Shown here one piece after another: positions 13,518 through 50,221 of a stretch of 64,000 nucleotides of DNA. The notes under the pieces were generated by a model. The model worked only from the letters and a program-made list of their open reading frames with translations, searched no databases and was not told where the DNA came from. The stretch is taken from assembly GCA_948472955.1 (NCBI GenBank), contig CAOKVW010000001.1, forward strand, positions 40,226 to 104,225, given 5' to 3'. Positions within the stretch are counted from its first letter, which is position 1. Each line of letters begins with the position of its first letter. The position numbers and the translations under genes were made by a program. This stretch comes from an uncultured Clostridium sp. Its GTDB lineage: Bacteria; Bacillota; Clostridia; TANB77; CAG-508.

Positions 13518-13576
13518 AATCTTCTCTCCTTTGTGCTTGATTTTGTTACTTCTCAGTCTTTCTCTATTTTGGTAAC

Positions 13577-13708
13577 AAAAGTTTATCTATTTTTTATGAA
13601 GTAACAATTCGGGGGGACCAACAAATTATAGACTGTTACAAAATTAAAAATTTTGTTTACAGTCTGTTATGCAGTTGAGAGTTACAAATAAAAAATAGAT
13701 AAACTTTT
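13577..13708. repeat. Palindromic MITE-like repeat element, copy 1 (21-bp perfect terminal inverted repeats, internal hairpin)
   Basis: aaaagtttatctattttttat...ataaaaaatagataaactttt. About 85% identical to 20014-20132. Confidence 0.7.
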
Positions 13709-13819
13709 GTTATTAAAATCAAATTGACTTATTGTAACTAAAATTTATTAAATTCTATGTGGCTTGTACTAGTTTTATGATAAAATTAAAAAAGAAAAAT
13801 ACAAAAGATTTTTCTTTTA

Positions 13820-15926: not shown

Positions 15927-15998
15927 GGTTGGGTAGCTCAAAAGGTAGAGCATTGGATTGCAATTCTAAGGTTATAGGTTCGATTCCTATCCCAGCCA
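15927..15998 (+). tRNA. tRNA-Cys (anticodon GCA). CCA not encoded.
   Basis: Manual cloverleaf: acceptor ggttggg/cccagcc, D-arm gctc-aaaaggta-gagc, anticodon loop ttGCAat, T-arm atagg-ttcgatt-cctat. Confidence 0.85.
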
Positions 15999-31067: not shown

Positions 31068-31115
31068 ACCTGTCCCAAAAGTAGCCAAAAGGGGTATGAT
31101 GGTGCCTGTCCCAAA
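31068..31115 (+). repeat. 48-bp repeat, copy A (contains an internal 11-bp direct repeat CCTGTCCCAAA). Inverted partner at 44302-44350.
   Basis: 47/48 identity to the reverse complement of 44302-44350. Confidence 0.7.
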
Positions 31116-31127
31116 CGCACCCCAAAG

Positions 31128-34100
31128 TCACATCCTTAAAAATTCTGTTACGTCATTTAAAATTTGTCTTTCGTCGTCTTTTTCTATTTGTAGTGTTATC
31201 ATAGGTTTGATGCCTGCTGAGAATTTGATTCTGTTTCCATATTTTTTGACTAGTTTAGTGATGTCTAAGTCAAATTGATTTGGTTCAAAGGTAAATACGA
31301 CTGCTGTTTTCTTTTCTGTGTGTTTGCTTGCTATTTTACTGATTTTTAGTTGTTTTGCTAAATATTTAATTCTAGCGATGGCAATTAGATTTTCTACTTC
31401 AACTGGCATGTTACCAAAGCGGTCAATGATTTCATCTGTAACATTTTGTATGTTTTCTTCATTTTGACAAAGTGCAATATTTTGATAAATTTCTATTTTT
31501 TGATTGGCATCTGGTATATATTCATCTGGTATATAACTGGTTACGTTTAAGTCTATTTGAATTTCTATGTCTGGTTGGATTTGAATTCCTTGCATTTCTT
31601 TTACCACTTCGTCTAGCAAATGGCAATAGGTGTCATACCCCACTTGTTCTAAGTGACCGGATTGAATTTCTCCGAAGTAAGCTTCCTGCTCCTCTGATTT
31701 GCAGGTCTCTCATGGCTATTTTAAAGCCTGAACCAAATTCAGTAAATTCTTTGATGGCTTTTAATCTTTTGTCTGCTATTTCGGTTAATAATTTGTCTTT
31801 TTTATAAGTAATATAGGCATATGCCTGTCTGTCTGCTCTTCCTACTCTTCCTCGTATTTGATACAATTGAGCTAATCCCATTCTATCTGCATTTTCCACA
31901 ATAATGGTGTTGGCATTTGGTATGTCGATTCCGGATTCTAGTATGGTGGTACAAACTAATACATTGGTTTTTCCTTCCATAAATTCCTTCATGATTTCTT
32001 CGATTTTAGTTCCTGTCATCTTTCCATGTGCATAGACTACATTTGCTTCTGGTACTAGGCTGGCTATATTATTTGCCTTCTTTTGAATTCCCTCTACATG
32101 ATTGAATATATAAAATACTTGACCATTTCTTTCTAATTCTTTGGTAATCGCTTCTTTGATAACCTCTTCATCATATTCTAACACATAAGTTTGAACAGGT
32201 TTTCTGTTTTGTGGTGGTTCGTAAATGACTGACATATCTCGTATTCCTACGATTGACATGTGCATCGTTCTTGGGATTGGTGTTGCTGTCATGGTTAAGA
32301 CATCAACATTTGTTTTTAATTGCTTGATTTTTTCCTTGGCTTTTACTCCGAAGCGATGTTCTTCATCAATAATTAATAGTCCCAAATCTTTAAATTCAAT
32401 ATCTTTACTCAAAATTCGATGCGTTCCAATTACAATGTCTACTTCGCCTAATTTTAATTTTCTAACGACTTCGTCTTGATATTTCTTACTTTTAAATCGA
32501 TTTAAAATTTCTACTGTAATCGGAAAATCTTTCATTCTTTCTTTGAATTCTTGGTATTGTTGTTCTGCTAAAACAGTAGTTGGTGCTAGGTAAGCAACTT
32601 GCTTTTGGTCCATAACTGCTTTAAAAGCTGCTCTTAGAGCCACTTCTGTCTTTCCATATCCTACATCACCACATAATAATCGGTCCATTGGTTTTACGGT
32701 TTCCATATCTTTTTTTACTTCTTCAATACAACGCAACTGGTCATCTGTCTCTTGATAAGGAAATTTTGCTTCAAATTCATTTTGCCAAGGGGTATCGTGA
32801 CTAAATGCAAACCCTTGCATTTTTTCCCTTTTGGCATATAATTCGATTAACTCTTTTGCTACTTCTCGTAAATTATTTTTTACTTTTGTTTTCGTATTTT
32901 CCCATTCTTTGCTTCCTAAACGATTTATTTTTGGCTGAATGTTATCTCCACCAATATACTTTCGAACAGAGTCTAAATCATTGGTTGGTATATATAAAAT
33001 ATCATCATTTTTATATTTTATTTTAATATAATCTTTTATCGTTCCATCTGCTTGGATAGTATTAACGCCAATATAAATACCAATTCCGTATTTTTTATGA
33101 ACAACGTAATCTCCGACTTTTAAGTCGGCAAAGACTATCTTTTCTCCTTCTTTAAACTCACTGCTTACCAGTCGTCTTTTTCTTTTTTCTCCATCCATTA
33201 AGTCATCTGCAACAATAACTAATTCTTGTAACTCATAAGCTTCCCATCCTGCTGATAAAGTTCCAATGGTAATGGTTACAATCGATTGATTTGCTTTTAC
33301 GATAATGGTTTGATTTAATTGTTCTTCTATTTTGTTTATGATATTTTTGTCATTTAATAAAGCTTGTAGCTTTTTTGCTTTTTCTTTCGTAGATACTAGC
33401 ATATATATTTTTTTCTTTTCTTGGATTGCCTTTTGTAAATCTTCTATTAAATTATCTAGTTCACTTTTGTAGTAATTTACCTCTCTGTATGCAAATTTGT
33501 ATTTCTCATTTGCTAATTTATTTTCCCTATCTTGTTTTTCGATATAAACAATTTGCCTGTTTTGCAGTTTTTCTTCTATTTCTTCATAGGTTACCAAATT
33601 GGTAATGGCATCTGGTATGATTTTTTCTTTTTCTAATAAAGCTTTTCTTAAATTGTTGTTATCGATTGCGAGGTTCGTTGCTCTTTGTTTTATTTTCCCA
33701 ATTTCTTCTAAAAATATACAATAATGCGTAGATAAATAGTCTAGTAAGGTTTCTTGTTTTTCATAAAAACAGTTAAAATATTTATCTATTTTACTGATAT
33801 AATTTCCTGCTTTTATTTGTTCGATATCTTCTTCTATTATTTCCTTTTGTTTCTGGTTACTAACTGTTTCTTCTATTTTTTGACAGATTTTTTCAATGGA
33901 TTTTTCTAAAATGTATTCATGGGCTGGATAAATGGTAGCTTTTTCTAATGTGCCAACTGACCTTTGACTGGTAATGCTAAAGTTTCGGATAGAATCGATT
34001 TCGTCTCCCCAAAACTCAATTCTAACACCTGTTTTTTCATTGGTAGCAATATCAAGAATACCTCCACGAATACTAAATTGTCCTCTTCCTTCTATTAAAT

Positions 34101-36582: not shown

Positions 36583-36840
36583 ATTTACTACAATCCTTTC
36601 TTCTTTTTTATTACTCTATTTTTAACGAAGTTTATTATATTTTTTATATTGTAGGAAAGTTCTCCTAGTAGGAGGACTTTCTGTACAAGATAAATATGGG
36701 AATTTATAGAATTTCTTTGCGGTTATCACCGCTTAGATTTCTTAGCCGTATGAGCATTAGCGAATTACGGATAAGTTATGCGTTAGAAAATTCTTAAATT
36801 CGTTTTTTATGAAATGACAATTTCTAAAATACTAGCTTAG

Positions 36841-37020
36841 ATATCATATATTATTTGCGACACCTCGTAAGCGACCAGCCTCTGCATACTGCCACTGTAA
36901 CAAGCAAAGCTTTAACAGTGGACAGCAAAACGAGCAAAAGCGAGTGCGATTGGAGCAACCATCTGCATTTTAAATTAAGAAGGTTGCGACACACAAGGTG
37001 TAAAAAATAATATATGATAT
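36841..37020 (+). ncRNA. Candidate structured small RNA / structured repeat element, copy 1 (about 180 nt). The function call is uncertain.
   Basis: 24-bp terminal helix (atatcatatattattt...aaataatatatgatat). Conserved gcaacc/ggttgc stem with a variable loop. Extra internal hairpin ccactgt/acagtgg. Homologous to 48779-48921. -35/-10-like TGACAA-17-TAGATA upstream. Confidence 0.4.
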
Positions 37021-37050
37021 CTTAAGTTTTCAGTATGTAATGTGTAAACT

Positions 37051-40432: not shown

Positions 40433-40476
40433 AGCCTATTAGACTGTGTTTTTATCTAAGTTCTAATAGGCTTTTA
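40433..40476. terminator. Bidirectional terminator between leuS and the convergent repeat-protein gene
   Basis: agcctattag ... ctaataggct 10-bp stem followed by a T-run. Confidence 0.55.
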
Positions 40477-40944
40477 TAAACCTTGAACTTGAACTTTATT
40501 TAATAAAAAGTCAATTTCCGTGTCATGATTTTCAAGTTTTTTTTCACAAAACTTGATGTTTTCTTCTTGCTTTTCTATTTTTTGTGTGTTTGTAGTAAAA
40601 GCATCAAATAATGCTCTTAATTTGTCTCCATGCTCATGCTCGATGACAGCTACACTTCTGCTGATATTTCTTATATCTTGTTGCATTTGTAATATGTCTT
40701 TCTGCATTTGTGGTATTTTTGCTATCTCTTTTTGCATTTCTGGTATCTTTGCTATTTCTTTTTGCATTTGTGCTATGTCTTTCTGCATTTGTGGTATTTT
40801 TGCTATCTCTTTTTGCATTTCTGGTATCTTTGCTACTTCTTTTTGTATCTCCGGAATTTTCCCCACTTGTTCTTGCATAACATCTATTTTAACACTAATA
40901 TTTTGAATAGCAGCCAATATTTCATTTTTTGCCTCACTCTCCAT
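40474..40944 (-). CDS. Tandem-repeat coiled-coil protein with seven [KIPxMQKEIA]/[QMQKDIA] units. Function unknown.
   Basis: In-frame 30-nt and 21-nt DNA tandem repeats across about 40655-40880. Confidence 0.5.
   Translation of the reverse strand: MESEAKNEILAAIQNISVKIDVMQEQVGKIPEIQKEVAKIPEMQKEIAKIPQMQKDIAQMQKEIAKIPEMQKEIAKIPQMQKDILQMQQDIRNISRSVAVIEHEHGDKLRALFDAFTTNTQKIEKQEENIKFCEKKLENHDTEIDFLLNKVQVQGL
40655..40880. repeat. In-frame tandem DNA repeats (30/21-nt units) inside the repeat-protein gene. Candidate variable-number locus.
   Basis: Reiterated tttttgcatttctggtatctttgctat(c/t)tc units. Confidence 0.7.
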
Positions 40945-43744: not shown

Positions 43745-44292
43745 CTAACACTTATCTAAGACCAATTTCAAATCATGAATAAAATCAATCTTTTTTGTAT
43801 CATCGCGAAGCAAGGCAGCTGGATGCCAAGTTGGCATATAATAAATCCCCTTCTTTCCAATCCACTTGCCTCGAGAAGCTGTTATTCCATACTCTTTCCC
43901 TAAAATATTTTTAAGAGCTACACTTCCGAAGTAACACAATAATTTCTGGTTGTACCAAAATAACTTGATTTCGCAAATAATTCATACAAGCAAAAGCCTC
44001 ATCTTCTTCTGGATTACGATTAGCTGGTGGTCTACATTTTACAATATTAGCAATATACACATCATCTCTTTTGATACCAACTGTTTGAAAAGCCATATCC
44101 ATTAATTTACCAGCTCTTCCTACAAAAGGTTCTCCGAAGTCTATCCTCATCTGCACCAGGTCCTTCTCCAATAAACATAATTTTTGCCTTCTTATTTCCT
44201 ACGCCAAAAACAATATTCTGCCTTGTCTTACACAACTTACACTTATTACAATCAACAATTGCCTCTTCTAATTCTTTCCACGTTTCAAACAT
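43745..44292 (-). pseudogene. Family-4 uracil-DNA glycosylase (UdgA-type) split into three ORFs by two frameshifts
   Basis: 'CNKCKLC' 4Fe-4S motif, 'MFIGEGPGADED', 'PFVGRAGKLMD', 'HPAALLR' across three frames. Confidence 0.8.
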
Positions 44293-44301
44293 TTGGTTAT
44301 T

Positions 44302-44350
44302 TTTGGGACAGGCCCCATCATACCCCTTTTGGCTACTTTTGGGACAGGTC
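44302..44350 (-). repeat. 48-bp repeat, copy B (inverted relative to 31068-31115), ending 10 nt upstream of the udg start
   Basis: Reverse complement matches copy A at 47/48. Confidence 0.7.
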
Positions 44351-45291: not shown

Positions 45292-46584
45292 TTACCCTCC
45301 TCGTTGTTCATCATATTTTGTTTCTTCTTTCGAATATTCTTCTGGTTTTAGTCCTACACGACTACTCATATATCTTTCTGTTAGTATAAAAGCTATCGTA
45401 AAAATAACACCAATAATTATCATACAATAAGCTGTTGTCATTTTATCTAATAGGAAGGAAGCAAATAATCCTCCTATTACTCTTATTATACTACGAAATA
45501 AATTATTAGCAGCAAATATTTTAGTATCTATCTCTTTGTTGGTAAAATTTCTTAAATATTTATCAATAATTGTATAATACATTCCATTTCCAAAATAAAA
45601 AATTAAATTGGTTATAATGATAATTCCTAATAGTAAAATATATTCTTCTGCTTTTAATCCACAGATTCCTGTTATAATTATGCTAATCGATAGCATCAAG
45701 GCAATAGTAATTAAAAATTTATTTTTTAATTTATTATGAAATATTTGTTGCTTTTTAGAAGCACGAGAACTAATATACGTTCCTATGGCAGCTATAATTC
45801 CAATTACTATAGAAGATATATTTAATTCTTCTAACAAACTAATATGGTAGTTGTTTAAAATCGATAATAGAGCATAAATCAATGATGAACAAAGAATTAA
45901 TGCTTTTAGTCTTTCAGATTTTAGAACATAAATAAATCCTTCTTTTACCTCTTTTAATTGTTCACTACCTAACATTTTATTAGCATTCTTCTTTTTTTGA
46001 ATTGGTTCTATAAATCCTATTGATAAAATAGTTACAATAATTAGAACAACCAATGAGCATATTACTGGTAAATAAGTATTTATTGTAAATAGATAACCTG
46101 CTATTACTTTTGATATAGCATCTACTAAATAATACCCCGATGCCCCTTTGGCACTTATTTTGGAATATATATCACTTTTGTATTTGGAAGGAGGTATCGA
46201 TGCATTTAATAAACTTGGTTCAGCAATATTTTTGATAGAAAATGCTATTGCTGATATAAATTCTGCAAATATTAAATCAAATAAATTTCGACTTAGCATT
46301 ATAATTAGCATATAAAAGCAGTTTAAAACATTTCCTAAAATAATACTATTCTTTCTTCCTAAAAACTCTACCATGATATTAGCTGGAATTTGCATAATAA
46401 TACTAAAAAAGGCATAAAATGTGCTTTTTAATACAACATCTGCTCCACTAATTCCTTTTACTTGTGTTAAAAACAAAAATTCAACCACATAATAGAACAA
46501 GTAATCCCATGCCAATTTTTTATAAATTGGAAAGATTCTCATATTTATTTTTCTCATTTTCTGCGTTTCTTCTTTGGTACTCAT
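45292..46584 (-). CDS. MFS transporter, tandem paralog 1 (about 90% nt identity to paralog 2)
   Basis: 12 TM, 'EFLGRKNSIILGN' MFS motif A, conserved 'RVGLKPEEYSKEETKYD' tail. Confidence 0.8.
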   Translation of the reverse strand: MSTKEETQKMRKINMRIFPIYKKLAWDYLFYYVVEFLFLTQVKGISGADVVLKSTFYAFFSIIMQIPANIMVEFLGRKNSIILGNVLNCFYMLIIMLSRNLFDLIFAEFISAIAFSIKNIAEPSLLNASIPPSKYKSDIYSKISAKGASGYYLVDAISKVIAGYLFTINTYLPVICSLVVLIIVTILSIGFIEPIQKKKNANKMLGSEQLKEVKEGFIYVLKSERLKALILCSSLIYALLSILNNYHISLLEELNISSIVIGIIAAIGTYISSRASKKQQIFHNKLKNKFLITIALMLSISIIITGICGLKAEEYILLLGIIIITNLIFYFGNGMYYTIIDKYLRNFTNKEIDTKIFAANNLFRSIIRVIGGLFASFLLDKMTTAYCMIIIGVIFTIAFILTERYMSSRVGLKPEEYSKEETKYDEQRGG

Positions 46585-47879
46585 TACACAACTCCTTGTT
46601 CATCATATTTTGTTTCTTCTTTTGAATATTCTTCTGGCTTTAGCCCTACACGGCTACTCATATATCTTTCTGTTAATATAAAAGCTATCATAAAAATAAT
46701 ACCAATAATTATCATACAATAAGCTGTCGTCATTTTATCTAATAGGAAGGAAGCAAATAATCCTCCTATTACTCTAATTATATTACAAAATAAATTTTTA
46801 GTAGCAAATATTTTAGTATCTATTTGTTTATTCGTAAAATTTCTTAAATACTTATCAATAATCGTATAATACATTCCATTTCCAAAATTATAAATTAAAT
46901 TGGTTATAATAATAATTCCTAATAATAAAAAATATTTTTCTGCTTTCAAGCCACAAATTCCTGCTATAACAGTACTAATTGATAAAATCATAGCGATGGT
47001 AATTAAAGATTTATTTCTCAATTTATTGTGAAATACCTCTTGCTTCTTAGAAGCATAAGAACTAATATAGCTTCCTATAGCAGCTATGATTCCAATTACT
47101 ACAGAAGATACTTTTAATTCTTCTAATAGACTAATATGATAGCTGTCTAAAATTGTTAATAGAGAAACAATTAATCCTGCACATAATATCAACGCTTTTA
47201 ATCTTTCTGATTTCAAAACATAAATAAATCCCTCTTTCACGTTTTTTAGTTGTTCATTTCCTAATATTTTAGTAACATTTTTCCTCTTTTTTTCAATTGG
47301 TTCGATAAATCCCATTGATAAAATGGCTACAACAATTAAGGTAAATAATGAACATATAAGTGGCAAATATCCATTTATCGTATATAAAAAACCTGCTATT
47401 ATCTTAGATATGGCATTAAATAAATAATATCCCGATGCTCCCTTTGCACTTATTTTGGAATATATCTTACTTTTGTATTTAGAAGGTGGTATGGATTCAT
47501 TTAGTAAACTTGGCTCAGCCATGTTTTTGATAGAAAATGCTATAGCACATATAAATTCTGCAAAAACTAAATCAAATAAGTTTCGACTTAGCATTATAAT
47601 TATCATATAAAAGCAGTTTAAAACATTTCCTAAAATAATACTATTTTTTCTTCCTAAAAACTCTACAATGATATTAGCTGGAATTTGCAGAATAATACTA
47701 AAAAAAGCATAAAAAGTCTCTTTCAATACAAAATTTGCTGCACTAATTCCTTTAATTTGTGTTAAAAATAGGAATTCGATGGTATAAAAGAATAGATAAT
47801 CCCATGCCAATTTTTTATAAATTGGAAAAATTCTCATATTCACTTTTCGCATTTTTTGTGTTTCTTCTTTGGTACTCAT
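46584..47879 (-). CDS. MFS transporter, tandem paralog 2. Its stop overlaps the paralog 1 start (TAATG).
   Basis: Same architecture. The duplicated unit includes the RBS 'caaggagttgtgtaATG'. Confidence 0.8.
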   Translation of the reverse strand: MSTKEETQKMRKVNMRIFPIYKKLAWDYLFFYTIEFLFLTQIKGISAANFVLKETFYAFFSIILQIPANIIVEFLGRKNSIILGNVLNCFYMIIIMLSRNLFDLVFAEFICAIAFSIKNMAEPSLLNESIPPSKYKSKIYSKISAKGASGYYLFNAISKIIAGFLYTINGYLPLICSLFTLIVVAILSMGFIEPIEKKRKNVTKILGNEQLKNVKEGFIYVLKSERLKALILCAGLIVSLLTILDSYHISLLEELKVSSVVIGIIAAIGSYISSYASKKQEVFHNKLRNKSLITIAMILSISTVIAGICGLKAEKYFLLLGIIIITNLIYNFGNGMYYTIIDKYLRNFTNKQIDTKIFATKNLFCNIIRVIGGLFASFLLDKMTTAYCMIIIGIIFMIAFILTERYMSSRVGLKPEEYSKEETKYDEQGVV

Positions 47880-48735: not shown

Positions 48736-48778
48736 TCGTCATTTTTTCCCCTTTATCATATATTTTACAATCTACTAA

Positions 48779-48921
48779 CCTAAGATTTAATATATTACTT
48801 TTCGACACTGCGTAAGCGACCAAACGAGCATTATGCGAGTGCGATTGGAGCAACCATCCATATTTCAATTAGGAAGGTTGCGACACACAAAGTGTTGAAA
48901 AATAATATATTAAATCTTAGG
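48779..48921 (+). ncRNA. Candidate structured small RNA / structured repeat element, copy 2 (about 140 nt). The function call is uncertain.
   Basis: 31-nt terminal helix with 2 mismatches (one G-U). Same gcgagtgcgattggagcaacc...ggttgcgacacacaa core as copy 1 with a different loop. TTTACA-17-TTAATA upstream. Confidence 0.4.
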
Positions 48922-48931
48922 TTCATAGTAT

Positions 48932-50221
48932 CTAAACGATTTCCTTCATTTTATCATATTTTGTTTCTTCTTTTGAATATTCTTCTGGTTTTAGACCAAC
49001 TCTACTTTTCATAAATTTAGTCACTAATATCATTAACACGGCAAATATAACACCAACCATTATCATACAATAAGCCGTTTCCATTCGGTCCAATAAGAAA
49101 GCTCCTAAGAAACCTACTACTGCACCAGCAATTCCCTTTAAAAAATTATTCGCTGTAAAAATTTTTGTATCAATTTTTTCATTTGTAAAATTACTTAAGT
49201 ACTTTTCTATTAAAGGGTCATACATGGCTGAAAAAATATATTCAACAACATAAAACACAACAATCATACATATAACGATTGGATATTGTTTCGCTATCAC
49301 TCCTGCTATTCCTGCCAAAAGACAAGCTCCTATGATTGAGAAAGCTACAACAGAAAGTGATTTATTTCGTAATTTGTTATGGAATTGTTCTTGCTTTTTA
49401 ATAGCCATTCCTCCCACAATTCTTAGTATAGCAAATAAAATTCCTAAATAGCCAGCAGAAATTTCTAAATCCTCCAGCATACTAATTTCATAATTAGATA
49501 CTATGCCAATTATTCCTTCCACAACAGCTGAATACAATAGGAGACTTTTTATTCTCTCTGATTGTAACACAAATTTGAACGCTTCTCCGATTTCTTTTAG
49601 CTGTCCTACACTTTGTATTTTCTTTTTCTTGGTTTTTTTGATTGGCTCGATAAATAATGTTGCCATAAAAGTTACTATGATTAAAGTTGCTAGTGATAGA
49701 AAAATTGGAATATAGGGATTTACCTCATATAAAACTCCCGCTATCATAGTTGAAATCGCATTAATGATATAATATCTTGACATTCCTTTTTCATTTATTT
49801 TAGCAAAAATTTTACTTTTAAACTTAGTTGGTGGTATGGATTCATTTAATAAGCTTGGTTCGGCACTTTCTTTAATGGCAAAAGAAATTGAACTCAACAT
49901 TTCTGCAACAATTAAATAAAATAAATGATTGCTAAATATAACAACTACCATATATACACAGCTTAAAATATTTCCTAAAATGATACTATTTTTTCTTCCT
50001 AGAAATTCTATGATAAAAGTGGCTGGTATTTGCGAAAACACGGTAAATAGATAATAGAAAGAATCAATTAATACAACATCTGCTGGATTGATATGTTTTA
50101 CTTGGGTCAAAAATAGGAAATTTATCGTATAGAAAAAGATATAATCCCAACTTAATGTTTTATAGGCTGGAAATAGCTTCATATTTCGTTTTCTCATTTG
50201 TACTTTATTTGCTTCTTCCAT
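48932..50221 (-). CDS. MFS transporter, diverged third paralog (about 50% aa identity) with the same C-terminal tail
   Basis: 'EFLGRKNSIILGN', 'RVGLKPEEYSKEETKYD'. Confidence 0.8.
   Translation of the reverse strand: MEEANKVQMRKRNMKLFPAYKTLSWDYIFFYTINFLFLTQVKHINPADVVLIDSFYYLFTVFSQIPATFIIEFLGRKNSIILGNILSCVYMVVVIFSNHLFYLIVAEMLSSISFAIKESAEPSLLNESIPPTKFKSKIFAKINEKGMSRYYIINAISTMIAGVLYEVNPYIPIFLSLATLIIVTFMATLFIEPIKKTKKKKIQSVGQLKEIGEAFKFVLQSERIKSLLLYSAVVEGIIGIVSNYEISMLEDLEISAGYLGILFAILRIVGGMAIKKQEQFHNKLRNKSLSVVAFSIIGACLLAGIAGVIAKQYPIVICMIVVFYVVEYIFSAMYDPLIEKYLSNFTNEKIDTKIFTANNFLKGIAGAVVGFLGAFLLDRMETAYCMIMVGVIFAVLMILVTKFMKSRVGLKPEEYSKEETKYDKMKEIV

Follow-up and report, generated by a model that had tools for sequence, protein, structure and literature searches.

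Two intergenic gaps of a clostridial chromosome carry, on the plus strand and amid minus-strand genes, sequences that resemble each other and fold into long hairpins. The question is what such a pair represents: genes for a small structured RNA, copies of a mobile DNA element, an invertible switch or a structural site kept by the host. A preliminary description of the window, that is, of the whole stretch of 64,000 nucleotides analysed here, had reported a two-copy, structured element reminiscent of 6S-like or regulatory sRNAs, with a MITE-like DNA element as the alternative. The window is AT-rich chromosomal DNA of about 30 % G+C and holds housekeeping genes, nearly all on the minus strand, among them genes for SMC, a P-type ATPase, topA, mfd, leuS, addB, ogg and MFS transporters. 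The first copy occupies the gap that separates the stop of an HD-domain gene from topA; the second has the stop of an MFS gene on one side and a Cu-oxidase_4 (pgeF-like) gene on the other.

Two related palindromes in the window

The 21-mer GCGAGTGCGATTGGAGCAACC has exactly two matches in the window, at 36940-36960 and 48835-48855 on the plus strand, where shuffled sequences let none be expected, and GGTTGCGACACAC is likewise present twice, so the shared core reported before was recovered. The long terminal helices reappeared as inverted repeats, with arms of 30 nt at 36839-36868 and 36993-37022 (87 % complementary) in copy 1 and arms of 46 nt at 48764-48809 and 48891-48936 (85 % complementary) in copy 2. 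Hairpin extension assigned 48764-48936 to the palindrome of copy 2, and imperfect pairing of copy 1 reaches out to about 36822-37040. The opposite strand of both copies folds about as stably as the strand listed in Table 1. The conserved 6-bp stem GCAACC/GGTTGC with differing loops is real in both copies, and so is the extra hairpin of copy 1, a self-pairing module of 51 nt that makes up the main difference between the two. A 30-mer of this module recurs in seven copies of other MAGs (L022, L030, L084, L087, L097, L107, L114). Copy 1 is 100 % identical in eight further contigs of the same species. No Rfam family claims either locus: at the gathering threshold the sole match in the whole window was a tRNA (15927-15998), and in E-value mode the two loci drew only generic long-hairpin miRNA models far below threshold, e.g., 34 bits versus 140.

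Table 1 Features of the two copies, in window coordinates
Feature	Position	Strand	Basis or remark
Copy 1, entire palindrome	36834..37028	+	Anchored hairpin extension, inverted repeat; rod fold -65.6 kcal/mol, z = -8.6 versus shuffles
Copy 1, 5' arm	36834..36864	+	Terminates in conserved T-run, GCG internal loop and ACACC
Copy 1, conserved core	36865..36996	+	Two family alignments with covariation counts
Copy 1, contents of core			TCGTAAGC (GNRA-like mini-hairpin), 51-nt module, P2a 36930-36945, GCGATTGGA, P3 36955-36987, GACACACAA
Optional 51-nt hairpin module (AGCCTCTGCATACTGCCACTGTAACAAGCAAAGCTTTAACAGTGGACAGCA)	36877..36927	+	Not in copy 2
Copy 1, 3' arm	36997..37028	+	GGTGT, A-run, then the complement of the 5' arm
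Copy 1, putative promoter-like TTGCGA-16-AATAAT	36984..37011	+	Consensus scan; directed out of the core through the 3' arm
Copy 2, as insertion relative to empty strains	48760..48934	+	Filled/empty comparison, inverted repeat; rod fold -61.0 kcal/mol, z = -10.9 versus shuffles
Copy 2, conserved core	48810..48890	+	P2a 48824-48840; P3 48850-48881
Copy 2, putative promoter-like TTGCGA-17-AATAAT	48878..48906	+	Consensus scan; directed outward

Copy number and distribution

The description as a two-copy element had to be given up, for the family runs to hundreds of members. A genome scan with the exact pattern TTGGAGCAACC-N10-40-GGTTGCGACAC, one genome per species, yielded at least 109 stretches, all in MAGs of uncultured Clostridia, Clostridium sp. 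CAG:440 among them. The guts sampled were those of human, mouse and chicken, among others. At least 40 MAG species representatives carried the pattern, with up to 8 loci per MAG among the matches listed. A metagenome scan anchored on the other half of the core, GCGTAAGCGACCAAACGAG, contributed at least 120 additional stretches, and copies occur in many gut metagenomes. The pooled and de-duplicated set comprised 200 distinct copies and was used for the analysis. The element was not matched in plasmid and phage collections (BLAST) or in IMG/VR (exact pattern), thus a phage- or plasmid-borne origin is not supported. A conjugative-plasmid ssDNA promoter (Frpo/ssi) and an sso origin were dropped as candidates, since the context is a chromosome of housekeeping genes. 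Full-text literature searches with strings of the core sequence returned chance primer matches only, and no description of this element emerged from a keyword search for clostridial MITEs. Family A, as the repeat is named here, is a large group of small, mobile DNA repeats of hairpin shape; it occurs in uncultured gut Clostridia and is apparently undescribed.

Filled and empty sites

Copy 2 is absent from seven contigs of the same species (L245-L249, L252, L254). Their site reads CGTTAAATCATGATAAGGAG; the neighbouring MFS protein is identical, and only 16 nt lie between the upstream MFS stop and the start of pgeF. The window has at this place an insertion of roughly 175 nt with TA on both sides (48766-48767 and 48933-48934), and the insertion provides the TAG stop of the MFS gene, whose product thereby changes at its C-terminus (429 aa versus 431). 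A TA duplication of the target site, if any, would also suit copy 1 and L090; it does not suit L079 and L111. In a sister species with an HD protein 89 % identical, copy 1 is missing, the spacer between the HD gene and topA being 51 nt there versus 510 nt in the window. In three further filled/empty pairs between species the entire palindrome is missing, including the arms. The element is, or recently was, mobile. Its termini vary (TAACTG.., GGACAA.., TTTATT..), which is a point against a mobile palindrome. An origin of the arms by copying of the local target was rejected in view of empty sites that contain neither arm; only the outermost extension in L073 looks locally derived, and this may be an assembly artefact.

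Several contigs of the same species end inside copy 1. On contig L002 (10774-11066), which belongs to the window's species, the HD-gene side of copy 1 is joined to a different 5' arm (CTTAATGTGTTATTTATTATTTTT), that of a third copy, and to an ECF-transporter operon. Two explanations suit this junction: recombination between two copies, or a chimera that arose at the repeat during metagenome assembly.

Some copies occupy orthologous sites in species with flanks only 72-83 % identical, and their cores are near-identical. Such cores between diverged flanks could instead reflect host-level selection on each copy. They would suit a domesticated structural DNA site, a cruciform or hairpin that the host has retained, that is bound by a chromosomal protein (a nucleoid, replication or repair factor) and that no longer moves: the core is conserved above the flanking coding sequence at these sites, its orientation is biased relative to gene and replication direction (see below), and its occurrence is strictly chromosomal, with none in the phage, plasmid and IMG/VR collections. 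Domestication is nevertheless very unlikely given the recent insertion within a species, the empty sites in related species and the existence of modular variants and deletion derivatives; moreover, no candidate binding protein is known.

Anatomy and covariation of the core

The core of this mobile repeat is asymmetric and about 80 nt long, and optional modules lengthen it to about 130-170 nt. From the outside inward, the arms are followed by a conserved T-run on the 5' side and A-run on the 3' side, a conserved asymmetric internal loop in which GCA faces AA, five pairs that co-vary (ACACY/RGTGT) and the core. Within the core, the order is GCGTAAGC, GACCAA, P2a (ACGAGC-loop-GCGAGT, with tandem G·A), GCGATTGGA, P3 (GCAACC-loop-GGTTGC) and GACACACAA. 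Three modules are optional: the hairpin of 51 nt that follows GCGACC, an extended P3 and, in the loop of P3, inserts of ~90 nt; deletion derivatives have lost P3 between GCGA direct repeats. No ORF is present within any copy, even the large P3 inserts being only about 90 nt long.

A covariance model obtained from the genome-scan copies was used to align 105 copies of the independently anchored metagenome set. In this alignment double-sided changes were found in 21 of the 27 modelled pairs, 88 % of the cells were paired versus 26-41 % with the partners slid by 1-3 columns, and the observed covariation score was reached in none of 500 shuffles. P3 occurs as GCAACC/GGTTGC, GCAATC/GATTGC, GCAACT/AGTTGC, GTAACC/GGTTAC and GCAAAC/GTTTGC. 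P2a exchanges C:G for T:A (U:A) and G:C for A:T (A:U) and can be lengthened by extra pairs, and in L120 the tandem G·A/A·G is swapped for two Watson-Crick pairs. The junction nucleotides are nearly invariant across copies. P2 (CCAA/UUGG) and a UG/CA extension of P3 are alternatives, and each search pattern held one side constant. The inner part of P1, P2a and P3 show real compensatory changes, which indicates selection on a folded single strand. Only the plus strand has the tandem G·A motifs and the GNRA-like GCGTAAGC mini-hairpin, so it is the strand that folds.

Whether this strand folds as RNA or as DNA is a separate matter. The plus strand could be transcribed into a rod-shaped sRNA or cis-regulatory RNA of roughly 140-190 nt, whose core binds a protein or a ligand, and the family would then be a dispersed family of sRNA genes. 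The co-varying core helices, the variable loops and modular inserts, the near-invariant junction nucleotides, the GNRA-like GUAA loop and two tandem G·A motifs confined to the plus strand, and the orthologous copies that retain the core between diverged flanks are all in line with such an RNA. The core helices also have a mild G·T (G·U) excess on the plus strand (53 versus 32 A·C), which RNA would also explain and which is a point against a mobile palindrome folded as DNA. Tandem G·A pairs and GCGNNAGC-type hairpins, however, are stable in DNA as they are in RNA; these motifs therefore do not discriminate ssDNA from RNA.

Arms of free sequence and near-perfect pairing

The arms are 15 to 140 bp long, with a median of about 40. 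Outside the conserved internal loop, 8075 of the 8326 arm positions in the 200 copies were Watson-Crick pairs, the rest being 65 G·T, 70 A·C and 116 mismatches of other kinds. In an RNA helix under selection, one strand would be rich in G·U. A·C in the arms corresponds to a would-be G·T on the other strand. Wobble pairs are no commoner here than other mismatches, and a laxer earlier count agrees. This mismatch balance is the signature of a DNA palindrome, not of RNA. Between copies, identity is 0.83 in the core, 0.73 at arm positions 1-12 and 0.61 at arm positions 13-40, with 0.53 for shuffled arms; conservation peaks at the centre and decays outward. Multi-base variants specific to one copy are identical in both of its arms. 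The lack of a G·T excess, the near-random sequence of the arms between copies and the matched variants in both arms together point to a copying process that keeps the arms identical. One locus has arms of 72, 86 and 140 nt in different strains. The longest arm (L073) takes in, inverted, about 50 nt from the end of the neighbouring ROK kinase gene, and an assembly artefact is possible there.

Of the structured element proposed at the outset, the small conserved stems with variable loops, the modular insertions and the compensatory changes stand, and the long terminal helices lack the wobble signature of RNA. The arms form most of the rod and do not tolerate wobble (65 G·T versus 70 A·C), which argues against a functional rod-shaped transcript. 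For RNA discovery in general a caution follows: near-perfect "covariation" in a long helix can arise from DNA-level template switching, and the balance of G·T and A·C mismatches offers a simple test for DNA-level copying versus RNA selection. The inverted logic of a conserved centre with free ends points to the recognition of a folded single strand.

Core inversion and orientation

Thirteen orthologous loci, each represented by at least two contigs with flanks at least 90 % identical, were available for a comparison of core orientation at the strain level. At six of them the core has opposite orientations between otherwise identical arms. The flipped loci include arms of only 29-36 bp, e.g., the clean case of L154_679 versus L194_4524 with arms of about 33 bp, and assembly ambiguity is unlikely at this length. 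At arms of 70-140 bp assembly ambiguity is possible, and where the arms exceed the k-mer of the assembler the core orientation could be an artefact. Among the copies located between co-directional genes, 91 are antisense and 30 sense (binomial p = 2.5e-8), counts that include some orthologues and are not fully independent; the genome set alone has 54 antisense and 17 sense copies. Passive flipping alone does not predict this 3:1 bias, and this is a point against the interpretation as a mobile palindrome that we prefer below. GC skew follows gene orientation, thus replication and transcription orientation are not separable by skew. Median distances of the palindrome edge are 35 nt from the upstream stop codon and 78 nt to the following start.

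A pair of -35/-10-like hexamers had been noted upstream of both copies. The consensus scan found TTTACA-18-TAATAT upstream of copy 2 only, with no equivalent at copy 1. Across the 200 copies it found no conserved promoter upstream of the element or on the other strand, and no terminator. What is shared is the promoter-like site directed out of the core (Table 1), present at the same position in about 100 of the 200 copies. Its consensus match is weak (9/12), and the number of promoter-like sites in the region is not above shuffle expectation.

These results complete the case against a dedicated 6S-like or regulatory sRNA gene, which we consider unlikely. A stand-alone sRNA gene is one of one or few dedicated genes with a promoter and a terminator of its own; found were instead a dispersed repeat with at least 200 copies, presence or absence by strain and species, a core that flips between strains and no conserved upstream promoter. 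With 75 % of the copies antisense to their neighbours, read-through would mostly yield the other strand. Insertion polymorphism at the strain level and contig breaks are typical of mobile repeats. Like 6S RNA and rod-like sRNAs (Rfam), family A forms an extended rod that is double-stranded over most of its length and has an asymmetric region inside. Unlike them, it has no Rfam match, 6S included, it has many copies per genome versus one gene, it is mobile, and its arms are devoid of the G·U pairs.

The flipping core is also an argument for a mobile invertible switch, a "portable inverton". An outward promoter or an orientation-dependent RNA element in the core would then toggle the transcription of a neighbour by the flip. 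A segment between inverted repeats that is seen in both orientations, as at the six loci with unchanged arms, is one mark of an inverton; the promoter-like site keeps its plus-strand position in the two window copies and in roughly half of the 200, has no equivalent on the other strand, and the orientation is strongly non-random. We nonetheless judge a switch improbable. Besides the weakness of the promoter match and its frequency at shuffle level, the neighbours are housekeeping genes (topA, the HD-domain gene, MFS, pgeF-like) and not typical phase-variable loci, and no recombinase recurs nearby. A spacer of 80 nt is very short for the synapsis of duplex sites, and in the majority orientation the promoter would read into the upstream gene from its 3' end. 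An element that inserts at gene ends, can provide stop codons, has a directional promoter-like site and flips may cause strain-level differences in expression. It may also be a source of assembly breaks in gut metagenomes.

Proposed mode of propagation

Taken together, both loci are probably members of a non-autonomous, mobile, hairpin-forming interspersed repeat of the REPIN/MITE kind, which resides in the chromosomes of uncultured, AT-rich Clostridia of the gut. Once folded as a single strand, the core would act as a cis-acting signal for propagation, most likely in the form of plus-strand DNA; only there do the GCGTAAGC mini-hairpin and the conserved tandem G·A exist, which favours this form. 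A trans-acting enzyme would recognise the folded core, and such recognition would keep the core constant while the arms drift. Template switching in replication, or gene conversion between the arms, would keep the arms perfect, sometimes lengthen them and flip the core. The arms would need only to pair, and selection at the RNA level would not be required. Any transcript would be a by-product of read-through or of the weak outward promoter-like site, and it may still affect neighbours, for example as a long hairpin in an mRNA or as an antisense transcript.

Template switching at inverted repeats has been described to homogenise arms, invert the spacer reversibly and expand arms (PMC8604942, PMC13100816, PMC8794818), and all three effects are seen in family A. 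The reported inverted repeats are anonymous and have spacers of a few bases, in contrast to the conserved functional module of 80 to 170 nt that forms the spacer in this mobile repeat.

As to the enzyme, no recurrent protein family was found beside the 200 copies, and no Y1/HUH gene among the annotated ORFs of the window. What the window does encode is a Transposase_31/YhgA-like gene and a large serine recombinase, and no link of either to the element was established. The Transposase_31 gene (YhgA/Rpn-like PD-(D/E)XK) is located at 28380-29384 on the minus strand; the same family is syntenic in the sister species and occurs near the chimeric junction of L002. Integron attC sites, retron ncRNAs, IS200/IS605 ends, IS110 bridge RNAs and self-cleaving ribozymes were considered and discarded, since their architecture does not fit (the ends of family A are not conserved, and no reverse transcriptase or transposase is adjacent) or Rfam would match.

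Comparison with known elements

The bacterial palindromic interspersed repeat is known as a kind. The combination of a conserved multi-helix centre, free but copied arms and a frequent flip we could not find described. Among the closest known designs are REPINs, which are mobilised by RAYT/TnpA_REP (PMC3116915, PMC8266576). Like family A, they are short, non-coding, chromosomal, multi-copy intergenic hairpins with two inverted arms and a spacer, they persist long in lineages, and action as folded ssDNA with an enzyme in trans has been proposed. Compensatory changes preserve the hairpin in both; those of REPINs were read as structure of ssDNA or mRNA (PMC3116915). The differences concern the distribution of conservation. 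In REPINs it resides in the distal REP 16- to 25-mers and the spacer is variable; family A has a conserved centre and free arms and shows no conserved distal REP motif. Its core is a multi-helix junction and not a simple loop, and no RAYT gene was found among the window ORFs or next to any family-A copy. Core flipping is, to our knowledge, not described for REPINs.

The MITE-like alternative of the preliminary description came closer to the evidence than the sRNA did, as regards the multi-copy nature and insertion polymorphism. As do MITEs and modular repeats such as Correia/CREE, RUP, BOX, ERIC/IRU and bcr1 (see PMC3184786 for a review), family A forms short, non-coding, interspersed insertions, AT-rich, intergenic, of 100-250 bp near gene ends, with terminal inverted repeats, presence/absence polymorphism and a possible TA duplication (as in RUP and Correia). 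It shares with them optional internal modules, comparable to boxB in BOX, and the ability to bring stop codons and promoter-like hexamers. MITE ends, however, are conserved, bind the transposase and match a parental IS, whereas the termini of family A differ per copy, and no parental IS and no transposase relative could be found. Family A also stands apart by its arm lengths of 15 to 140 bp and by a conserved part that is an internal, structured core with covariation.

Parvovirus and AAV genomes end in terminal hairpins, T-shaped in the ITR, that occur as flip and flop and are recognised as folded ssDNA by an HUH nuclease. Family A resembles the ITR in its long stem, the junction with two small hairpins and the asymmetric tip in two orientations. 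This is an analogy only and no homology is claimed: the AAV hairpins are ends of a linear ssDNA virus genome, family A consists of internal chromosomal palindromes. It is conceivable, though we hold it doubtful, that family A stands for a new class of mobile element. A conserved multi-helix fold of ssDNA or RNA would then be the only sequence-specific part, situated at the tip of a stem of any sequence and any length; the element would be mobilised by a structure-specific enzyme, its tip would flip like the flip/flop of parvoviral hairpins, and it may carry a switchable outward promoter or an antisense signal to housekeeping genes.

Further repeats and variable features of the window

A second repeat family, family B, has the same design as family A and occurs in the window at 13566-13719 and 20015-20143 on the plus strand. 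It consists of variable arms, a T-run, the core GAAGTAACAA-TCGGGGGGACCAAC-hairpin-AGTTGGGAGTTAC, an A-run and the complementary arm, and CAAC/GTTG co-varies with CAGC/GCTG. The sister species has family-B copies at other sites (L011 3782-3916 and 9780-9910), and further copies were present in L022, L026 and L067. If family A is a new class of element, the occurrence of family B in the same genomes with the same design suggests a wider superfamily. Beside the second family-B copy, a large serine recombinase of 611 aa with Resolvase, Recombinase and Zn-ribbon domains (21381-23216, minus strand) and a small unannotated ORF (20200-20490) may form the edge of an integrated element.

A pair of inverted 61-nt sequences, 89 % complementary and 13 kb apart (31068-31128 and 44289-44349), represents a G+C-rich REP-like unit (ACCTGTCCCAAAAGTAGCCAAAAGGGGTATGATGG.GCCTGTCCCAAA). 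Other MAGs have REP-like units of their own (GGGGTCGGTCCC, GGGGACGTAGATAATGTCCC, TTGCCACYGGTTCCGGGTTT), often placed symmetrically within the outer arms of family-A copies.

Adjoining copy 1, about 210 nt (36620-36835) are likewise missing from the HD-topA spacer of the sister species. They hold the hairpin AAAGTTCTCCT-AGT-AGGAGGACTTT, and a part of 98 nt recurs in another MAG (L071 1508-1605) with 91 % identity. This stretch may be a further repeat or a topA leader. Near copy 2, three paralogous MFS transporter genes are encoded on the minus strand (45292-46584, 46584-47879 and 48932-50221), 92 %, 83 % and 66 % identical at the DNA level over segments of 300 nt. Two of the genes form a tandem, whereas the third is found past the pgeF-like gene and is followed by copy 2; the sister species has one MFS gene fewer in this block. 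Between the two copies, the minus strand encodes at 40474-40944 an ORF of 156 aa built of 30-nt and 51-nt tandem repeats (GCATTTGTGGTATTTTTGCTATCTCTTTTT...), a coiled-coil-like protein. The length of this ORF differs among strains, with 129, 70 and 147 aa in L001, L002 and L011.
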